The notes under the pieces: generated by a model | What the model was told of the DNA's origin: nothing | The model's database searches: none | The model's input: only the letters and a program-made list of their open reading frames with translations | Shown: positions 1,577 through 8,059 of the stretch, piece by piece | Layout: each line of letters starts with the position of its first letter | How positions within the stretch are numbered: position 1 is the first letter of the stretch | Assembly (NCBI GenBank): GCA_045652745.1 | Contig: JAZRUW010000004.1 | Coordinates: forward strand, 24,277-88,276 | Direction of reading: 5' to 3' | Origin: Clostridia bacterium | Lineage (GTDB): Bacteria > Bacillota > Clostridia > UBA1381 > UMGS1253 | Length of the DNA: 64,000 bases | Translations under genes and position numbers: made by a program

Positions 1577-3424
1577 GTGGTGAGTCGGTTGTTTAAAAGT
1601 CTGCGATGGAAAATTATAGCCATGTTTGTGTTGTTGGTGCTCTCCGTTATGATTATTACGGGTACGGTATCCGTATCTTCCCTCGGCACATTCTATGCAC
1701 AACGTTTTGCCGACAATATGGATGCGGTATTTGCAGATGCGATGGTGGCGAAAGATTTGTCTGATGCCGCTGCAGCAGAAAATGCACCTGAGCGTATTTC
1801 TGATATCATCGAAGCCTATGCCGATGCAGGCCGCCTCGGTATCAACCAAAACAGAAACTACTTTATCTTCGATGCCGCAACCGGTATATGCTTAGACGGC
1901 TCGGCCGACTACACAGTTGACACCGTGTTAAAAACGGAAAATCTTCTGTCTGCCATGAACGGCAAAGTCGGCAACAAAGTCGGTAGCCACAGTTCCATCA
2001 TGGACTATGCCTATCCCATACACTTTGAAAACACCGTGCGCTACGTTGTATATATCACCGACAACAAAGACGAAGTCACCGATGTATCACAAAGTATCAT
2101 CGCCGTTGTATTTCAGGCATTGTTGTGGGGCGTGGTTATCTCGCTCGGCCTCGGCATTTTTATATCGAGAACCATTACACAGCCGATTGTGGATTTGACC
2201 CGCCGCGCAGAAAAACTCGCCTCCGGAGAAGAAAATGCCATAGTGATGAATTCGGGCACCAAAAAACCGGATGACGAAATCGGTATTTTGGCCGATACAT
2301 TTTCTTATATGTCGGGCGAGCTGATGAAAACCATCCGCGAAATGGACGGCGAAAAAACAAAACTCGCCGCCATTTTGGAAAACTTAACCGACGGCGTTAT
2401 CGCCTTTGATACCGACGGTAAAATTTTGCACATCAATCCGGTTGCCGCCAAAATGCTCTCCATTGCAGAGCCGTCATTGGTAGATTTCGATACACTGATG
2501 AACGATGTAGGCATCAACTTAAAACTCGGTGATATTTTATATGTAAAAAGAAAACAAACCCTTGAACATACCGTCACATTGCAAAGTCAGGTCATCAAAG
2601 CCTTTTTTGCCACCTTTACGCAAACCGTGGAAAAGACGACCAAAAAAGTCGGCGGTATCGTGGTCGCCTTGCAGGATATTACCAAACTCCAGCGCCTCGA
2701 TGATGCGCGCCGCGAATTCGTTGCGAATGTGTCACACGAATTGCGCACACCAATCACCACCATTAAAACCTACGCCGAAACGATGCTCGACAGCAAGGAA
2801 GAAGGCGATATGGATGCGCATTTCCTGTCCACCATCAATTCCGAGGCCGACCGCATGACCCGCATTATCAAAGACCTTTTGACGCTCTCCAAACTCGACC
2901 ACAGTAAAGATACCGGCAAAAAAACGCGCATAGATATGCGCGAAATGCTTGAAAATGTTGTGGAAAAAATGGCGATGAGTGCCCAAAAACAGGGGCACAA
3001 ACTCACCTTTGTGGCTACAACGGAGTTGCCGCCGGTCACCGGTGACCGCGACCAGCTGGAGCGCGTGCTCACCAACCTGATTTCCAACGCCATTAAATAC
3101 ACGCCGGACGGCGGCGTAATTGAGGTGTTTGCAGGTCATTTGTATAACGAATTATACGTCAAAGTCAAAGATAATGGTATCGGTATTCCGAAAAAGGATA
3201 TCGCCCGCATTTTCGAGCGTTTTTACCGCGTGGACAAAGCGCGCACCCGCGCCGCAGGCGGTACGGGGTTAGGCCTTGCTATTGCTAAGGAAATTGTGGA
3301 GGCGCACGGCGGTAAAATCCAGATTACCTCCGAATTAAACGAGGGCACGGAGGTTATGCTCACCTTGCCGGCCAAGCGCAGAGCCTCCAGAAAGAAAAAG
3401 GAAGCAGAGGAAGAACAGGCTTGA
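1577..3424 (+). CDS. sensor histidine kinase (WalK/VicK-like architecture: 2 TM, HAMP, PAS, HisKA, HATPase)
   Basis: H-box FVANVSHELRTP, N-box LISNAIKYTP, G-boxes DNGIGI and GGTGLGLAI. The start is uncertain: GTG 1577, or TTG 1589 which lies 8 nt after AGGTGG. Confidence 0.92.
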   Translation: MVSRLFKSLRWKIIAMFVLLVLSVMIITGTVSVSSLGTFYAQRFADNMDAVFADAMVAKDLSDAAAAENAPERISDIIEAYADAGRLGINQNRNYFIFDAATGICLDGSADYTVDTVLKTENLLSAMNGKVGNKVGSHSSIMDYAYPIHFENTVRYVVYITDNKDEVTDVSQSIIAVVFQALLWGVVISLGLGIFISRTITQPIVDLTRRAEKLASGEENAIVMNSGTKKPDDEIGILADTFSYMSGELMKTIREMDGEKTKLAAILENLTDGVIAFDTDGKILHINPVAAKMLSIAEPSLVDFDTLMNDVGINLKLGDILYVKRKQTLEHTVTLQSQVIKAFFATFTQTVEKTTKKVGGIVVALQDITKLQRLDDARREFVANVSHELRTPITTIKTYAETMLDSKEEGDMDAHFLSTINSEADRMTRIIKDLLTLSKLDHSKDTGKKTRIDMREMLENVVEKMAMSAQKQGHKLTFVATTELPPVTGDRDQLERVLTNLISNAIKYTPDGGVIEVFAGHLYNELYVKVKDNGIGIPKKDIARIFERFYRVDKARTRAAGGTGLGLAIAKEIVEAHGGKIQITSELNEGTEVMLTLPAKRRASRKKKEAEEEQA

Positions 3425-4029
3425 TTAAAATAAAGGAAACCATCGTGGTGGAGGGCATCTATGATAAAATCCGTTTAGAAAGTGTCGTAGATGCAGTCAT
3501 TGTGGCCACCAACGGCTTTACGATTTTTAAAGATAAAGAAAAACTTGCCTTTTTGCGCAAGATGGCCGACACAACCGGCCTTGTGGTGCTCACCGATTCC
3601 GATGCGGCAGGCTTTGCCATCCGCAATTTTGTAAAACAGGGCATTGCCAAAGACAAAATCCGTCACGCCTATATCCCCGATATCTTCGGCAAGGAACGGC
3701 GCAAAACCGCACCCTCCAAAGAGGGCAAACTCGGTGTGGAGGGCATCGACGGCGCACTTTTGTGCGAAGCGTTGCGCAAAGCCGGCGCGACCATCCTCGG
3801 TGCAGACGAGCCAAAATATGAAATCACTGACCCGATTACGCGCATGGATTTGTATAACGACGGCTATATGGGCGGTGCAGACAGCGCCGAAAAACGCAGA
3901 AAATTGTTTGCAGCCCTCGGTCTGCCGCAAAGAATGTCTACCAACCTTTTGTGCGAGGTTATCAATCAGATTACGGACAGAGAAACCTATATCCAAATTG
4001 CACAAATGATAAAAGAGGGAAAACTTTGA
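3421..4029 (+). CDS. Toprim-domain protein (DUF4093 / RNase M5-like)
   Basis: N-terminus IKETIVVEGIYDKIRLE...LTDSDAAG resembles the RNase M5 Toprim fold. The TTG start overlaps the kinase stop (GCTTGA). Confidence 0.75.
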   Translation: MIKIKETIVVEGIYDKIRLESVVDAVIVATNGFTIFKDKEKLAFLRKMADTTGLVVLTDSDAAGFAIRNFVKQGIAKDKIRHAYIPDIFGKERRKTAPSKEGKLGVEGIDGALLCEALRKAGATILGADEPKYEITDPITRMDLYNDGYMGGADSAEKRRKLFAALGLPQRMSTNLLCEVINQITDRETYIQIAQMIKEGKL

Positions 4030-4639: not shown

Positions 4640-4926
4640 GCCGCAAGGCACGAAAGCGCCGCCACCGACAAAAGTGACATACCGCGAAAAGCCAGCACCA
4701 TCGCGATGGCAAAGCCGCTGACCGCGGTGTAAATATTGCCCGTTGCATAAAAGATATACGGCACCGTCATCGCACCGAGCACTGCATACGGCACATAGTA
4801 CAAAAAGTCCTGCACGAAGCGGCTTTGGATGCGAAAACGAAACAGTGCAAACGGAATCATGCGAATGAGGTAAGTCGTAGCCGCCATCACAACAAGTAAA
4901 ACCCAGTAATTATTCACCTTGCGCAC
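4615..4926 (-). CDS. azlD: branched-chain amino acid transport protein AzlD
   Basis: 103-aa hydrophobic protein immediately downstream of and overlapping the AzlC-like gene. This pairing is typical of AzlD. Confidence 0.85.
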   Translation of the reverse strand: MRKVNNYWVLLVVMAATTYLIRMIPFALFRFRIQSRFVQDFLYYVPYAVLGAMTVPYIFYATGNIYTAVSGFAIAMVLAFRGMSLLSVAALSCLAAYLVGFFF

Positions 4927-5614
4927 CCTCCTTTCGCGGCATCAGCGCCGCCATCAGTGCAGAGGAAATCACCGCGCAAAGGATGATGGCAAAGCCCTGT
5001 GAAATGTGCGCTTTCAAAAACGGCACATAATACAAAATGCAACTGAGTGCCACCGATACAAGCACTGTCCAGAGCACGCCGCGGTTTTCTTTTGCCGGCG
5101 GTACAACGATGGCCACAAACATCGCATAAATCGCAAGCCCGAGCGCAGCACAAAGTGCCTGCGGCAAAATCTGCCCCGCATACGCGCCGAGCGCCGTGCC
5201 GAGCGTCCAACCTAAGACGGGCAGTACAATCAAACCGTACATATAAGATGGCGTAAGTTTTTCCTTTTCATCTGCCGCCATGACAAACACTTCATCTGTA
5301 ATACCGAACGCGCACAAAAGTCTGTGCATAAATGTAAATTTGTTACCGAGCTTTTGCGTGAGCGCAATCCCCATGAGCGAATAACGTATATTGATGACCA
5401 GCTGCGTCAGCATCATTTCTATCACCGCACCGCCTGCCGCCATCACGGCCACACCGGCCTGCTGTCCCGCCGAGGTCACATTCATCAGCGACACAAGCAC
5501 CGCCTGCCAAGGCGCAAGCCCCATCGCAACCGCAGAGATGCCAAAACCGAACGAAACGGATAAATAGCCGAGCGCAATCGGCAAACCGCGCTTTAACCCG
5601 TATGTAAAATTCAT
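4910..5614 (-). CDS. azlC: AzlC-family branched-chain amino acid permease component
   Basis: 234-aa polytopic membrane protein with AzlC-like sequence (GYLSVSFGFG...LVSLMNVTSAGQ), paired with azlD. Confidence 0.9.
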   Translation of the reverse strand: MNFTYGLKRGLPIALGYLSVSFGFGISAVAMGLAPWQAVLVSLMNVTSAGQQAGVAVMAAGGAVIEMMLTQLVINIRYSLMGIALTQKLGNKFTFMHRLLCAFGITDEVFVMAADEKEKLTPSYMYGLIVLPVLGWTLGTALGAYAGQILPQALCAALGLAIYAMFVAIVVPPAKENRGVLWTVLVSVALSCILYYVPFLKAHISQGFAIILCAVISSALMAALMPRKEGAQGE

Positions 5615-5735: not shown

Positions 5736-5764
5736 TTGACATCAAAAAACATATATGCTATAAT
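5736..5764 (+). promoter_or_regulatory. consensus sigma-A promoter of the tRNA pair
   Basis: TTGACA (5736-5741), 17 nt, TATAAT (5759-5764), 55 nt upstream of tRNA-Thr. Confidence 0.7.
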
Positions 5765-5818: not shown

Positions 5819-5894
5819 GCTGGTGTAGCTCAATTGGCAGAGCAGCTGATTTGTAATCAGCAGGTTGCGGGTTCGAGTCCCATCACCAGCTCCA
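5819..5894 (+). tRNA. tRNA-Thr (anticodon TGT)
   Basis: Manual cloverleaf: acceptor GCTGGTG/CACCAGC, D arm GCTC..GAGC, anticodon arm GCTGA-TTTGTAA-TCAGC, T loop TTCGAGT, encoded CCA. There is one C-A mismatch in the T stem. Confidence 0.88.
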
Positions 5895-5897
5895 TAC

Positions 5898-5982
5898 GGA
5901 AGAGTTCCCGAGTGGCCAAAGGGGGCAGACTGTAAATCTGTTGCTTTCAGCTTCGATGGTTCGAATCCATCCTCTTCCACCA
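5898..5982 (+). tRNA. tRNA-Tyr (anticodon GTA), long variable arm
   Basis: Acceptor GGAAGAG/CTCTTCC, anticodon loop CTGTAAA, long variable arm, T arm GATGG-TTCGAAT-CCATC, encoded CCA. Confidence 0.92.
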
Positions 5983-5983
5983 G

Positions 5984-6015
5984 AAAAAAGCATCGACTTT
6001 GTCGGTGCTTTTTTC
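5984..6015 (+). terminator. intrinsic terminator after the tRNAs
   Basis: GCATCGAC-tttg-GTCGGTGC stem followed by TTTTTT. Confidence 0.7.
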
Positions 6016-6017
6016 AA

Positions 6018-6179
6018 TGAAATTTGCCTACGGCAAGTGAAATAGCTCCGCTATGAAATACACTTCGCGTATGAAATATTGCTTCGCAATATGAAAGGCA
6101 AATTTTATTTCACATTTTGCGTTAGCAAATTATTTCATAATCCGCAGGATTATTTCATATCAACGAAGTTGATATTTCA
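6018..6179. repeat. array of seven distinct mini-hairpins separated by TGAAAT (x5, forward) and ATTTCA (x4, inverted) linkers
   Basis: Linkers start at 6018, 6038, 6054, 6072, 6092 (forward) and 6107, 6132, 6152, 6174 (inverted). Each spacer is a different 5-8 bp palindromic stem with a 3-4 nt loop. See findings. Confidence 0.6.
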
Positions 6180-6186
6180 TTAAATA

Positions 6187-6215
6187 TTTACATCATTTAT
6201 AGGATGTGTTATAAT
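6187..6215 (+). promoter_or_regulatory. sigma-A promoter (extended -10) of the four-helix-bundle gene
   Basis: TTTACA (6187-6192), 17 nt, TGtTATAAT (-10 at 6210-6215). Confidence 0.6.
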
Positions 6216-6234
6216 ATCTGTAGAGGTGTTACAA

Positions 6235-6582
6235 ATGAAAGAAAATAAACTTGTTGATTTATCTACAGAATTTGCTGTTAAAGTTATTAAATTATGCGAA
6301 ACTATAAAAGGACATTATTCACTCGTAAATCAGTTGGAAAGGAGTTCTACATCAATTGGTGCAAATATTCATGAAGCAAACTATGCTCATGGTAAAAATG
6401 ATTTTATTGCAAAGTTACAAATAGCTTTAAAAGAATGCTATGAAACAGAATATTGGCTTGAACTTTTCGTTAAGTCCGATATTTTGAATAGAGATGTTGC
6501 AAAAGAGTTATATAACCAATGTGGTACAATTCGTAAAATATTGATTTCTTCAATCAACACCGCAAAGAAAAACAATAATTAG
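6235..6582 (+). CDS. four-helix-bundle protein (23S rRNA intervening-sequence protein / Avd-like family)
   Basis: The sequence LERSSTSIGANIHEANYAHGKNDFIAKLQIALKECYETEYWLEL is the hallmark of this family. AGAGGTG RBS precedes ATG 6235. Low GC. Confidence 0.8.
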   Translation: MKENKLVDLSTEFAVKVIKLCETIKGHYSLVNQLERSSTSIGANIHEANYAHGKNDFIAKLQIALKECYETEYWLELFVKSDILNRDVAKELYNQCGTIRKILISSINTAKKNNN

Positions 6583-6609
6583 ATTGCATCTATTATGTAC
6601 ACGAAAGCC

Positions 6610-6641
6610 AAAAATCCTCGTACGGTAGTACGGGGATTTTT
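6610..6641 (+). terminator. intrinsic terminator
   Basis: ATCCTCGTAC-ggta-GTACGGGGAT stem followed by TTTTTG. Confidence 0.6.
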
Positions 6642-6684
6642 GTTGAAACTTGTCAAGTTTCTAGTTTTGCTACGCAAAATAAAG

Positions 6685-6729
6685 GAATAGCACCTGATTA
6701 TTTTGATAAATCAGGTGCTATTCTTTTTC
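6685..6729. terminator. bidirectional intrinsic terminator
   Basis: 15-bp stem GAATAGCACCTGATT / AATCAGGTGCTATTC flanked by A and T runs. Confidence 0.6.
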
Positions 6730-6929
6730 AAATTTAATTATATCGCTAACCTCACAGTCAAGCGCATAACAAAAGCATCAAGGGTTTTGGTGTTTATGGC
6801 TTCACCTTTTTTCATTCGATGTAATGTATTTGCTGAAAAGCCTTGTTTAAAAATAAGATTATATTCAGTTATTCCCTTTTTGAAAAGCGTTTCATAAAAC
6901 GGCGCATAACTAATCACTTTCATCACCAT
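6718..6929 (-). pseudogene. HTH_26-type (XRE-like) small regulator with a 1-nt frameshift in a homopolymer run
   Basis: The annotated frame ends ...KTLDAFVMRLTVRLAI* at 6738. Adding one T to the run at 6771-6774 gives ...LDAFCYALDCEVSDIIKFEKE* (stop at 6718), which matches the C-terminus of the paralog at 7452-7655 (LDRICSALDCTASEIIEYVKE). Confidence 0.6.
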
Positions 6930-6953
6930 TTTAATATTATCATACTTAATCTC

Positions 6954-6982
6954 TTGACTATACTTAAAATATTGAGTATAAT
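6954..6982 (+). promoter_or_regulatory. near-consensus sigma-A promoter driving the small + strand ORF
   Basis: TTGACT (6954-6959), 17 nt, TATAAT (6977-6982), followed by AAGGAG. Confidence 0.6.
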
Positions 6983-7004
6983 TGGCATAAAGGAGATGAT
7001 TAAG

Positions 7005-7172
7005 ATGTTGAAAAAAGAGTTGGATAAAAAAACACATTTACAAAAGCATCTGTTTGAAAAAGGTTTTTTAATCACTAATACAAAAATAGGAAACACTGAA
7101 AAGTTTCCGTTTTATAATAATTTCAAAAAAACAACTATAGATTCCTTTGATTTTTGGATCACTTGGATTTAA
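7005..7172 (+). CDS. small hypothetical protein (55 aa), possibly the N-terminal remnant of a larger gene
   Basis: Promoter and AAGGAG RBS lie 9 nt before ATG 7005. Sequence is MLKKELDKKTHLQKHLFEKGFLITNTKIGNTEKFPFYNNFKKTTIDSFDFWITWI. No family recognised. Confidence 0.45.
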   Translation: MLKKELDKKTHLQKHLFEKGFLITNTKIGNTEKFPFYNNFKKTTIDSFDFWITWI

Positions 7173-7363
7173 AGTGCCGCATGAACAAAGAACTCTATGA
7201 TATGAATATTAGAGTTCAAAATGCTAATCAATCATCTAAGAGAGCAAAAGCGCTTGGACTATATTATTCAATAAATTCTCATTTGCCATTTTGAAACCGA
7301 CAATTACAAAGCGTTTTCTTGAAATTGGCAACTTCTAAACGGTTCGTAACAGCCAAACAACAA

Positions 7364-7405
7364 GGATGGATTCGCCTTGCCGCAGCAAGGCGAATCCATC
7401 CTCTT
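7364..7405. repeat. 17-bp-stem hairpin containing a 15-nt copy of the tRNA-Tyr 3' end (att-like repeat)
   Basis: CGAATCCATCCTCTT at 7391-7405 is identical to 5962-5976 inside tRNA-Tyr. The hairpin is GGATGGATTCGCCTTGC-cgca-GCAAGGCGAATCCATCC. Confidence 0.6.
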
Positions 7406-7415
7406 TCTATATCCA

Positions 7416-7454
7416 TTAAAAATAGTGCTTGATTTCTTTTAAAACCAAGCACTA
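7416..7454 (-). terminator. intrinsic terminator of the HTH gene
   Basis: On the minus strand, TAGTGCTTG...CAAGCACTA is followed by TTTTT. It overlaps the stop codon. Confidence 0.6.
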
Positions 7455-7655
7455 CTCTTTTACATATTCTATAATTTCACTTGCTGTACAATCCAATGCC
7501 GAACATATTCTATCTAATACAAAACTGTCATATCTCTTCACTTTATTTTTATAATAATTATCAATCACCTGATACTGTATGCCTGTACGCTTAGACAACT
7601 CATATCGACTTACACTGTATTTTTCAAGCGCTTTATCTAATTGAATTCTTATCAT
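7452..7655 (-). CDS. HTH_26-type (XRE-like) small transcriptional regulator
   Basis: MIRIQLDKALEKYSVSRYELSKRTGIQYQVIDNYYKNKVKRYDSFVLDRICSALDCTASEIIEYVKE. A GGGGGTGAG RBS lies just upstream of ATG 7653-7655; the longer ORF-track start is unlikely. Confidence 0.8.
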   Translation of the reverse strand: MIRIQLDKALEKYSVSRYELSKRTGIQYQVIDNYYKNKVKRYDSFVLDRICSALDCTASEIIEYVKE

Positions 7656-7825
7656 ATGCTCACCCCCTGAATACATTTTAATAAATATATATTCTCTTGA
7701 CAATTTCTTTAATTAGATATATGCTTATATAGATATATATTGGAAGGTGTTTTTATGCGGAAATTATAAATCTCTTTAAAACCATTAAAGATGATAGAAA
7801 AAATGGAAACTTAATAAAAGAGGTC

Positions 7826-7957
7826 ATGTCGGCTTACAATGATTACTATGAATTTGTTGTACATGTCAGCGGCTCATTTTATTCATTCTCCGCCAATCTG
7901 GATGTGCTAAAAAAACAACTTGCAAAGCAGCTTAAAACGTTGTCATACGAATTATAA
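7826..7957 (+). CDS. small hypothetical ORF (43 aa), possibly the in-frame tail of a frameshifted 68-aa gene
   Basis: The frame is open from 7733. The well-placed ATG 7755 (GGAAGGTG RBS) is one nt out of frame and stops after 4 codons. An internal ATG at 7826 has an AAGAGG RBS. Confidence 0.3.
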   Translation: MSAYNDYYEFVVHVSGSFYSFSANLDVLKKQLAKQLKTLSYEL

Positions 7958-8059
7958 AAATAGAAGAACGCCACTTTTTTCAAAACACAATTTTCTGTTG
8001 TGCCTTATTCATTTTTATGCTATACTGAACTCAACACTTCCCGAAAAGGAGTTCTTCGT

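Follow-up and report, generated by a model that had tools for sequence, protein, structure and literature searches.

Inverted pairs of the Gut-1 motif (RF01706) between tRNA terminators and PF05635 genes in gut Clostridia

The DNA analysed here, referred to as the window, is a stretch of 64,000 nucleotides on contig JAZRUW010000004.1 of a Clostridia bacterium (assembly GCA_045652745.1). At positions 6018–6179 it carries an array of short hairpins joined by constant linkers, behind a pair of tRNA genes and ahead of a gene of the PF05635 protein family. An earlier note, made from the sequence alone, had described this array as nine linkers with seven mini-hairpins between them, and sequence reading together with a k-mer scan confirms every coordinate: TGAAAT lies at 6018, 6038, 6054 and 6072, TGAAAG at 6092, and the complement ATTTCA at 6107, 6132, 6152 and 6174. 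The overall two-fold symmetry that the note had placed around 6100 is likewise present, with the dyad centre near 6100. Linker spacings are irregular (20, 16, 18, 20, 15, 25, 20 and 22 nt), and the k-mer scan finds no second cluster of this kind in the window. Six of the hairpins between the linkers are perfect (TTGCC/GGCAA, (T)AGC/GCT(A), ATATTGC/GCAATAT, TTTGC/GCAAA, TAATCC/GGATTA and ATATCAAC/GTTGATAT), while the seventh, ATACAC-TTC-GCGTAT, has a single A.C mismatch on the plus strand that corresponds to G.U on the minus strand. Chance, for which the note had proposed a control by shuffling, does not explain the array: among 5000 dinucleotide-preserving shuffles of 6018–6179, eight copies of a 6-mer and its complement were reached once, and none gave six perfect hairpins that did not overlap and had stems of 5 bp or more (maximum 4). 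No other 162-nt window in the 64 kb equals either the linker count or the hairpin count, and folding of the array is favourable on both strands (z = -5.4 against shuffles).

The tRNA genes to the left, tRNA-Thr (5819–5894) and tRNA-Tyr (5898–5982), lie on the plus strand and were identified by ARAGORN and as Rfam tRNA matches. The pair has a perfect sigma-70 promoter (12/12 matches, extended -10 TG) at 5736–5764, and the array stands directly behind a presumably very strongly transcribed tRNA unit. Directly after the CCA of tRNA-Tyr the module begins with a bidirectional intrinsic terminator, GAAAAAAGCATCGAC-ttt-GTCGGTGCTTTTTTC, at 5983–6015 (inverted repeat I6). It is followed on the plus strand by the proximal half of the array (6016–6109), which comprises linker 0 (ATGAAAT), four hairpins with R-TGAAAT linkers, the degenerate last linker TGAAAG and a centre segment. 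This centre segment pairs with the beginning of the half, 6016–6029 being complementary over 14 nt to 6096–6109 (inverted repeat I8). The distal half (6107–6179) shows four ATTTCA linkers and three longer hairpins on the plus strand. The earlier description of the array itself thus stands, with two omissions: the long-range helix 6016–6029/6096–6109 and the terminator at 5983–6015 as a part of the module. The array also marks the start of an AT-rich stretch (GC content 0.305 in 6001–8000 vs about 0.48 in the flanks) that runs to about 8000, past the right copy of a 15-nt repeat described below.

The last linker ends at 6179, and the -35 element TTTACA (6187–6192) of the next promoter begins 7 nt further on, with TATAAT at 6210–6215. 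This promoter (6187–6215, plus strand; TTTACA-17 nt-TATAAT with TG, 11/12 matches in a promoter scan) precedes a gene at 6235–6582 on the same strand. Its 115-aa product is a four-helix-bundle protein of PF05635/TIGR02436, the Avd/23S rRNA intervening sequence (IVS) family, with profile matches at 5.9e-26 (Pfam) and 3.4e-29 (TIGR02436) and a match to PDB entry 2RLD at 7e-24. A terminator-like hairpin with flanking A and T tracts follows at 6610–6641 (sequence reading; the terminator scan places it on the minus strand at 6632–6619).

The array is an inverted pair of Gut-1 motifs

The earlier note knew of no repeat or RNA family to which the array could be assigned. A search of Rfam provides one, namely Gut-1 (RF01706). 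Its covariance model matches 6015–6082 on the plus strand with 51.3 bits (E = 1.6e-9; gathering cut-off 50 bits), the sole Gut-1 match at the gathering threshold in the whole window, and it matches 6127–6203 on the minus strand with 46.2 bits (E = 3e-8), slightly under the cut-off. The model consensus consists of hairpins joined by GUGAAAU, and the window array aligns with three consecutive hairpins of it. The array is an inverted pair of this motif: the proximal half is Gut-1 proper, closed by the I8 helix, and the distal half contains a second, weaker copy on the minus strand. Among the related loci described below, the model scores at or above its cut-off in the proximal half of all 20 loci tested (53–89 bits), whereas the distal halves of other loci reach 50–59 bits or stay under the cut-off.

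Gut-1 was reported from 43 human-gut metagenome sequences as a series of three or four short hairpins that co-vary and are linked by (G)UGAAAU (Weinberg et al., 2010, Genome Biol 11:R31; PMC2864571). Covariation led its discoverers to class the motif as a certain RNA, and they assigned no organism, context or function to it (PMC2864571). Our literature search returned no mention of Gut-1 beyond this 2010 survey; the motif is known, catalogued and functionally unexplained. In the flanks of the original Stockholm file, a terminator or tRNA upstream and the inverted half downstream are already present. Some of its sequences use a co-varying linker GUGAUAU, then AUAUCAC, and one is identical with a locus of our own comparison (L248). 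Rfam describes Gut-1 as a free-standing small RNA (sRNA) of about 77 nt, which corresponds to the proximal half, and gives no context for it. In the window the motif is half of a dyad with a closing helix, held between a terminator and the promoter of a PF05635 gene, and the loop statistics given below favour the strand opposite to Rfam's. The succession of tRNA, terminator, dyad, PF05635 gene and cargo, the closing helix and the argument on strand appear not to have been described before. A flavin mononucleotide (FMN) riboswitch elsewhere in the window (RF00050, 27902–28041, minus strand, 103.9 bits) is unrelated to the array.

Recurrence, order and borders of the module

About 140 related loci were compared (139 for the survey of neighbouring genes). 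A genome scan for three consecutive GTGAAAT linkers returned at least 120 loci. Among the 120 matches listed, 59 are true hairpin arrays, so that the combination of linker and variable hairpin does recur in related genomes, as the earlier note had suggested should be checked. Nearly all of these 59 are in metagenome-assembled genomes (MAGs) of gut Clostridia, with a few in Akkermansia, and about 25 of them lie no more than 300 nt downstream of a tRNA gene. The association was also approached from the side of the protein, using 80 of 465 relatives of the window PF05635 protein (metagenome loci, proteins 73–88% identical). The dyad was found directly upstream of the gene in 61–62 of the 64 close-homologue loci with enough upstream sequence, which bears out the suspected tie to the Avd-like four-helix-bundle gene, and a same-strand tRNA gene lies within 700 nt in 46 loci. 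PF05635 is the only specifically recurrent protein family in the neighbourhood of the arrays, and at least 16 tRNA identities precede the module.

The order of elements is fixed: the CCA of a tRNA, bidirectional terminator, proximal half, distal half, promoter, PF05635 gene and, optionally, a coupled cargo gene. Within this order the terminator consists of GAAAAAAG, a hairpin and CTTTTTTCA, and is followed by linker 0, a first hairpin (hp1), three to four units of GTGAAAT plus hairpin and the centre segment. Three to four units of ATTTCAC plus hairpin, with longer stems, then lead to the -35 and -10 elements, the ribosome-binding site and the start codon of the PF05635 gene. In many homologous loci the promoter sits in the same place, with its -35 element abutting the last linker. 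A terminator of the A-tract/hairpin/T-tract type stands ahead of the array in nearly all related loci, and it is about 90% identical between two loci (L264 and L275) in which it follows different tRNAs. Judged by these alignments, the terminator at 5983–6015 is part of the conserved module, and Gut-1 is the proximal half of a conserved border module and no free-standing gene.

The hairpins had been described as seven different ones. All seven are present, yet they come from a common repertoire, which is met again in other arrays. Reassortment between loci affects halves and even single hairpins: L264 shares 97% identity with L276 in the proximal half, but 95% with L275 in the distal half and the gene. 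The proximal half was also considered as hypervariable relative to its flanks, which was rejected, the pattern being mosaic with no uniform excess. Other loci use other linker dialects (CATCAT, ATATCATC, AATTCAC and GTGATAT, in L128 at about 3500–3850, L123 at about 4740–5000, L230 and Weinberg's BAAZ loci), and mini-hairpin arrays built on a constant linker therefore form a wider class than the Rfam Gut-1 model covers. A scan of viral contigs for TGAAAT..RTGAAAT..RTGAAAT gave 120 matches, all of them chance occurrences in AT-rich viruses with no real hairpins, and a scan of the same contigs for GTGAAAT three times gave only a handful of true arrays, all adjoining tRNA genes and probably located in host flanks of prophage calls. 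In BLAST searches of phages and plasmids with array plus gene, the array had no match and the gene had only weak ones.

The borders of the module are marked in several ways. In the window, a 15-nt segment of the 3' part of tRNA-Tyr, CGAATCCATCCTCTT (5962–5976, plus strand), recurs exactly at 7391–7405, where a direct-repeat search found it on the same strand inside a perfect 18-bp inverted repeat (7363–7402). The chance expectation of a 15-nt repeat in the 2.6-kb region is estimated at about 0.003. The two copies bracket 5977–7390, about 1.4 kb with the array and the PF05635 gene. The pair looks like attL and attR of a decayed islet that has no integrase, the right copy being its probable far border; the suggestion that the array lies beside an att-like site of a decayed mobile element thus agrees with the repeat. 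Direct repeats of tRNA 3' ends bound the module in two further loci, over 15 nt in L276, where the repeat includes CCA and stands directly after the cargo gene, and over 23 nt in L209. In the pair L264 and L275, the module (terminator, dyad, PF05635, MazG) is 92% identical behind tRNA-Arg and tRNA-Pro, respectively, within unrelated surroundings, and homology extends from right after CCA to about 65 nt past the cargo.

A second kind of junction is found between stacked cassettes. Terminator and proximal half are repeated after the cassette: L285 has an exact copy of 105 bp, and further copies are present in L268, L270 and most of L246–L256. Three consecutive cassettes are present in L301, and L248 has four further tandem dyads which L247 does not have. 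Neither the window segment 5977–7390 nor the vicinity of the other loci contains an integrase. From the comparison, the modules are seen as small islets of about 0.6–1.4 kb without integrase, located after many tRNA genes in gut Clostridia, and the dyad appears to behave as their tRNA-proximal border and as the junction between cassettes. Strain indels were considered as cassette swaps and rejected, since they are a microhomology duplication (L312), a gene deletion (L409 at about 13300, 221 nt within the PF05635 gene) and indels in downstream genes (L277/L281). Some layouts are more complex. In L263 (about 3570–3760), L293 (about 3560–3790) and L320 (about 2940–3030), an intact tRNA with its own terminator is followed by an insert of 130–190 nt and then, directly ahead of the Gut-1 module, by a 3'-end remnant of the same tRNA, which suggests that later integrations at the same tRNA displaced the module downstream. 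In L301 a conserved segment of about 190 nt follows each cargo gene and thus occurs three times (1310–1540, 2525–2735 and 3440–3640), and the post-cargo stretch in L309 (about 2505–2590), L315 and L247 (about 4845–4905) contains the tRNA T-loop-like GAGAGTTCGAATC. These post-cargo conserved segments end in (C)CA right before the next terminator and array.

The gene content of the cassettes is variable beyond the PF05635 gene. In about 50 of 80 loci (L242–L321), the stop codon of PF05635 overlaps the start of a second gene as ATGA (for instance at 4345 in L245, 4345 in L264 and 864 in L301). This cargo differs by locus and comprises AAA_18 P-loop kinases, NUDIX, MazG, GNAT, APH, ASCH, histidine phosphatase (His_Phos_1), DUF4275, DUF2691 and proteins of unknown type. 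The 3' end of the PF05635 gene is often linker-like (GTGAAATGA in L283, GCGAAATGA in L276). The window copy has no coupled cargo gene; its block 6054–6571 is about 72% identical at the DNA level to L129, L161 and L178, and its homology to other loci ends at 6571. After the PF05635 terminator follow a 19-nt near-perfect inverted repeat (6681–6727), a weak Cro/C1-type helix-turn-helix (HTH) open reading frame (6738–7037, minus strand), probably degenerate, and an intact HTH_26 gene (7452–7703, minus strand), and neither the inverted repeat nor the two HTH frames are conserved beside the array in other loci. PADLOC returned no defence-system match. In a search for empty sites by exact look-up, no record of the window's PF05635 protein was found, and AzlC was found on one 1.6-kb contig only.

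Folding, covariation and the folded strand

The earlier note had argued for selection on structure, and the related loci support this, as stems co-vary between loci and between paralogues. The helix closing the proximal half measures 11–14 bp and is 100% paired in 44 loci, with 6 of 11 pairs changed on both sides; in controls in which the 3' partner was slid by a few columns, pairing collapses. For hp1 the corresponding values are 97.7% pairing and 5 of 6 pairs changed on both sides. The centre segment repeats the right arm of hp1 and adds the complement of linker 0, so that the left arm of hp1 has two co-evolving partners. Across 213 distinct hairpins with 1148 stem pairs, 1129 pairs (98%) are Watson-Crick, the remainder being 5 G.T and 14 A.C when read in Rfam's (GUGAAAU) sense.

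The loops distinguish the two strands. On the ATTTCAC strand, c-GNA-g accounts for about 74% of the triloops, and the tetraloops mostly follow GNNA or GNRA. In DNA, mini-hairpins with a GNA triloop and a closing C-G pair are exceptionally stable, whereas GNRA is a stable type of loop in RNA. Because GNA and GNRA loops are read on the ATTTCAC strand, the folded strand is probably the opposite of Rfam's, i.e. the minus strand for the proximal half and the plus strand for the distal half. The transcriptional layout is also relevant here. Between the preceding terminator and the proximal half lie 0–3 nt, the distal half runs up to a plus-strand promoter, and neither the promoter scan of the window nor the layout of the other loci places a promoter for either Rfam-sense RNA, which together argues against a free-standing sRNA in Rfam's sense. 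The sponge RNA proposed in the earlier note finds no positive support either, as no promoter is in place for either such RNA. A minus-strand sigma-70-like promoter (TTGACA-like, 17 nt, TATAGT-like) is seen at about codons 20–30 of PF05635 in 17 of 42 loci. In the window it lies at 6329–6301 (TTTACG-17-TATAGT), and in L258, L262, L272, L285, L293, L304, L313 and others it occupies the same codons. If active, it would yield an antisense transcript running through the array to the bidirectional terminator.

Possible roles of the dyad and its relation to known systems

Based on this dataset, we tentatively favour the hypothesis that the dyad acts on the DNA level, as the protein-binding border or attachment architecture of tRNA islets that have no integrase. 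The junctions at the CCA, in the tRNA core and at the dyad centre are seen in the loci; binding and recombination are inferred. Each arm carries four to five oriented 7-mers (T-GTGAAAT-A) pointing to the centre, which would be candidate binding sites for a factor made in trans, such as a recombinase, its accessory protein or the co-resident PF05635 protein. The mini-palindromes would fold on single-stranded or extruded DNA, with c-GNA-g and GNRA loops on the ATTTCAC strand, and this folding could display the linkers and bend the arm. Incoming cassettes would then join at the dyad centre or at the tRNA 3'-end core, leaving a copy of terminator and proximal half on the far side, and the built-in terminator may substitute for the one that has been separated from the tRNA.

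Several observations weigh against this hypothesis. No recombinase, transposase or HUH gene is recurrent within about 4 kb of the 139 arrays in the clustering of neighbouring reading frames, and direct repeats of tRNA 3' ends are limited to 3 of the about 55 loci whose flanks are long enough, being absent or out of range in the other 50 or so. The block shared by L264 and L275 starts after CCA, which excludes a classical crossover inside the tRNA for this pair. In L312 (3555–3974), compared with L311, a tandem duplication of 257 nt (dyad, promoter and 60 nt from the start of the PF05635 gene) is joined at a CTTTTTT microhomology, and exact duplications such as that in L285 could result from ordinary homologous recombination. 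The two halves have unrelated linkers in L128 (CATCAT) and L123 (ATATCATC), so that one protein binding both arms would not be universal; these non-complementary halves also rule out pairing of proximal with distal linkers as a universal structure. The PF05635 protein is not strongly basic (pI 8.4 here, family mean 7.8). Finally, wobble pairs are just as scarce in the adjacent bidirectional terminators, and the lack of G.U is hence no argument for DNA by itself; as an RNA control for wobble frequency, the terminators proved uninformative.

A role as transcribed RNA, the sense in which Rfam files Gut-1 (Gene; sRNA), is a serious alternative that we rate as somewhat less likely. It would take the form either of two convergent Gut-1 RNAs in the GUGAAAU sense or, more plausibly, of a single minus-strand transcript with its start close to or within the 5' end of PF05635, which would pass through the distal and then the proximal half and end at the bidirectional terminator. 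A protein might be bound by the linkers that stay single-stranded between the hairpins, for instance a pentamer of PF05635 with four to five linkers per half (the closest solved homologue, PDB entry 2RLD, has five chains), or the transcript would be an antisense or insulating one for the PF05635-cargo operon. Apart from the Rfam membership and the rating by the discoverers (PMC2864571), the strong covariation of hairpins and closing helix speaks for RNA, as do the strongly strand-asymmetric loops, which require a single-stranded reader, and a terminator that is bidirectional with a conserved A-tract, as if stopping minus-strand transcripts. The minus-strand promoter-like site at a fixed PF05635 position in 17 of 42 loci points the same way; however, it falls within conserved codons, reaches only 9–11 of 12 matches and is confined to a minority of loci. 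Read in the sense of Rfam, the proximal half follows directly after a strong terminator with no promoter, its loops are UNC, for which we know of no stability, and G.U pairs amount to 0.4%, while any single transcript spanning the dyad has GNA loops in one half only. Furthermore, arrays far outnumber adjacent PF05635 genes, which accompany 8 of the 59 true arrays among the matches listed.

We consider it unlikely that the arrays are selfish or domesticated modular palindromic repeats, comparable to repetitive extragenic palindromes and their mosaic elements (REP/BIME) or to BOX elements, which spread to sites just past terminators. Such repeats may be of benefit by back-up termination or insulation between tRNA and cassette promoter, by RNase entry or blocking, or by relief of supercoiling, and they would be found with PF05635 cassettes because both favour the same safe sites. 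Many arrays at contig ends and several per MAG (again among the matches listed), tandem arrays whose copy number differs between strains (L247 vs L248), arrays after protein-gene terminators and between convergent genes, proximal-half-only and dyad-only copies without PF05635, hairpin modules shuffled between arrays and the existence of other linker families are all in keeping with such repeats. Conservation of linker, half order and orientation across Clostridia families and Akkermansia nevertheless asks for a specific reader, and the association is near-obligatory in one direction, with an array at 95–97% of the close PF05635-homologue loci. In addition, the hairpins differ within an array, unlike REP copies, and no REP-associated tyrosine transposase (RAYT) or Y1 transposase is found near the arrays. 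Highly improbable, in our view, is that the array serves as operator or upstream control of the PF05635-cargo promoter, with a regulator (possibly PF05635 itself or a nearby HTH protein) binding the 7-mers on duplex DNA and the palindromes being incidental. This would fit a distal half that ends 0–8 nt from the -35 element, with the last linker often abutting it (ATTTCAC-TTGAAA), and the presence in the window of the HTH_26 gene at 7452–7703 and the degenerate frame at 6738–7037. Yet some dyads and proximal halves lack a PF05635 gene and promoter altogether, and the HTH genes, which lie beyond the end of homology at 6571, are not conserved beside other arrays. Binding to duplex DNA would also leave the co-varying palindromes, the strand bias of the loops and the closing helix unexplained.

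Gut-1 dyads might serve as recombination sites for a gene-cassette system of the integron type, so far undescribed, in gut Clostridia, although we regard this as rather improbable. Cassettes made up of distal half, promoter, Avd-family leader, coupled cargo, terminator and proximal half would be captured serially behind tRNA genes through folded-DNA multi-hairpin sites read by a trans-acting enzyme, with the Avd-family protein as a nucleic-acid-handling accessory. Classical integrons, to our knowledge, are not reported in gut Clostridia. As in integrons, structured elements resembling recombination sites lie between small, diverse accessory genes (GNAT, APH, NUDIX, MazG), cassettes are stacked (L301), and, as in attC, sequence varies while the fold is kept. 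The integron boxes follow the consensus GTTRRRY and RYYYAAC, with which GTGAAAT and ATTTCAC, respectively, agree at 6 of 7 positions each. Unlike integron cassettes, those of Gut-1 have their own promoter and leader gene and are located at tRNA 3' ends with no attI. Assignment to integron attC is rejected on the multi-hairpin dyad, as against a single bulged hairpin, and on the departure of GTGAAAT from GTTRRRY at position 3, and neither IntI nor another recombinase family is recurrent within about 4 kb of the 139 arrays.

Cis-mobilizable (CIME-like) tRNA islets without integrase resemble the module in its location at the tRNA 3' end, in the direct repeats of three loci and in tandem accretion. 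Arm-type sites of tyrosine integrases likewise are short oriented repeats beside an att core; in contrast to them, at least 16 tRNA identities are targeted with nearly the same module, the shared L264/L275 block starts only after CCA, and the element encodes no cognate integrase. For hairpins between the repeats of integrase arm regions we know of no precedent. The array may work like an attC or att-arm site, though it is no integron attC. With REP/BIME and BOX elements it has in common that small clusters of palindromes lie just 3' of genes or terminators, in multiple copies and opposed orientations; it is set apart from REP/BIME by palindromes of 12–20 nt that differ within the array instead of one conserved palindrome of about 35 nt, and by two opposed blocks with a constant 7-nt linker instead of alternating units, with no Y1/RAYT gene nearby.

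A CRISPR (clustered regularly interspaced short palindromic repeats) array is rejected on a constant part of 6–9 nt, short of the 23 nt or so of CRISPR repeats, and a variable part of 9–17 nt that is palindromic, unlike CRISPR spacers, with no cas-like family recurrent among the neighbours. Iterons or a plasmid centromere, a role which the earlier note had raised, find no positive support: such sites have direct repeats of 10–22 bp in regular phase, while spacing here is irregular (15–25 nt), the neighbours are tRNA and PF05635 genes with no rep or par genes, and plasmid BLAST gave no matches beyond the PF05635 gene. Type III toxin-antitoxin systems were rejected on their defining features, and of the parS, cre, Rex, CRP and extracytoplasmic function (ECF) -35 motifs, which the linker resembles, none fits the spacing.

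The 23S rRNA IVS and the Avd of diversity-generating retroelements (DGR) share with the module a PF05635-family gene in a stable-RNA locus with inverted structured repeats flanking. The Coxiella 23S rRNA IVS has been described as a selfish element that RNase III excises (PMC4990558), and PF05635 proteins resemble DGR Avd by structure (PMC10053308). In our PDB sequence search with the window protein, matches were obtained only to 2RLD and 2GSC, and Avd was not matched. The DNA hairpin of DGR targets has a GNRA-type loop. The IVS lies inside rRNA, whereas the Gut-1 module lies downstream of tRNA genes. A DGR is rejected on the diverse cargo of the downstream genes; no reverse transcriptase (RT)-like family recurs among the neighbours in about 140 loci (the 64-kb window was not RT-scanned as a whole), and no template or variable repeat lies beside PF05635 in these loci.

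Gut-1, an orphan motif since 2010, is now placed in named MAGs of gut Clostridia and in Akkermansia, and is assigned a constant place, behind the terminators of tRNA genes and ahead of cassettes led by PF05635. This context leads to testable hypotheses on its binding partner, on its functional strand and on a role in recombination or insulation. The large stand-alone PF05635 family ('23S rRNA IVS protein'/Avd-like) gains a second recurrent setting in stable-RNA loci. If cassette capture is true, accessory genes would be exchanged in the gut microbiome along a route that is new, with cargo including GNAT, APH, NUDIX and MazG.

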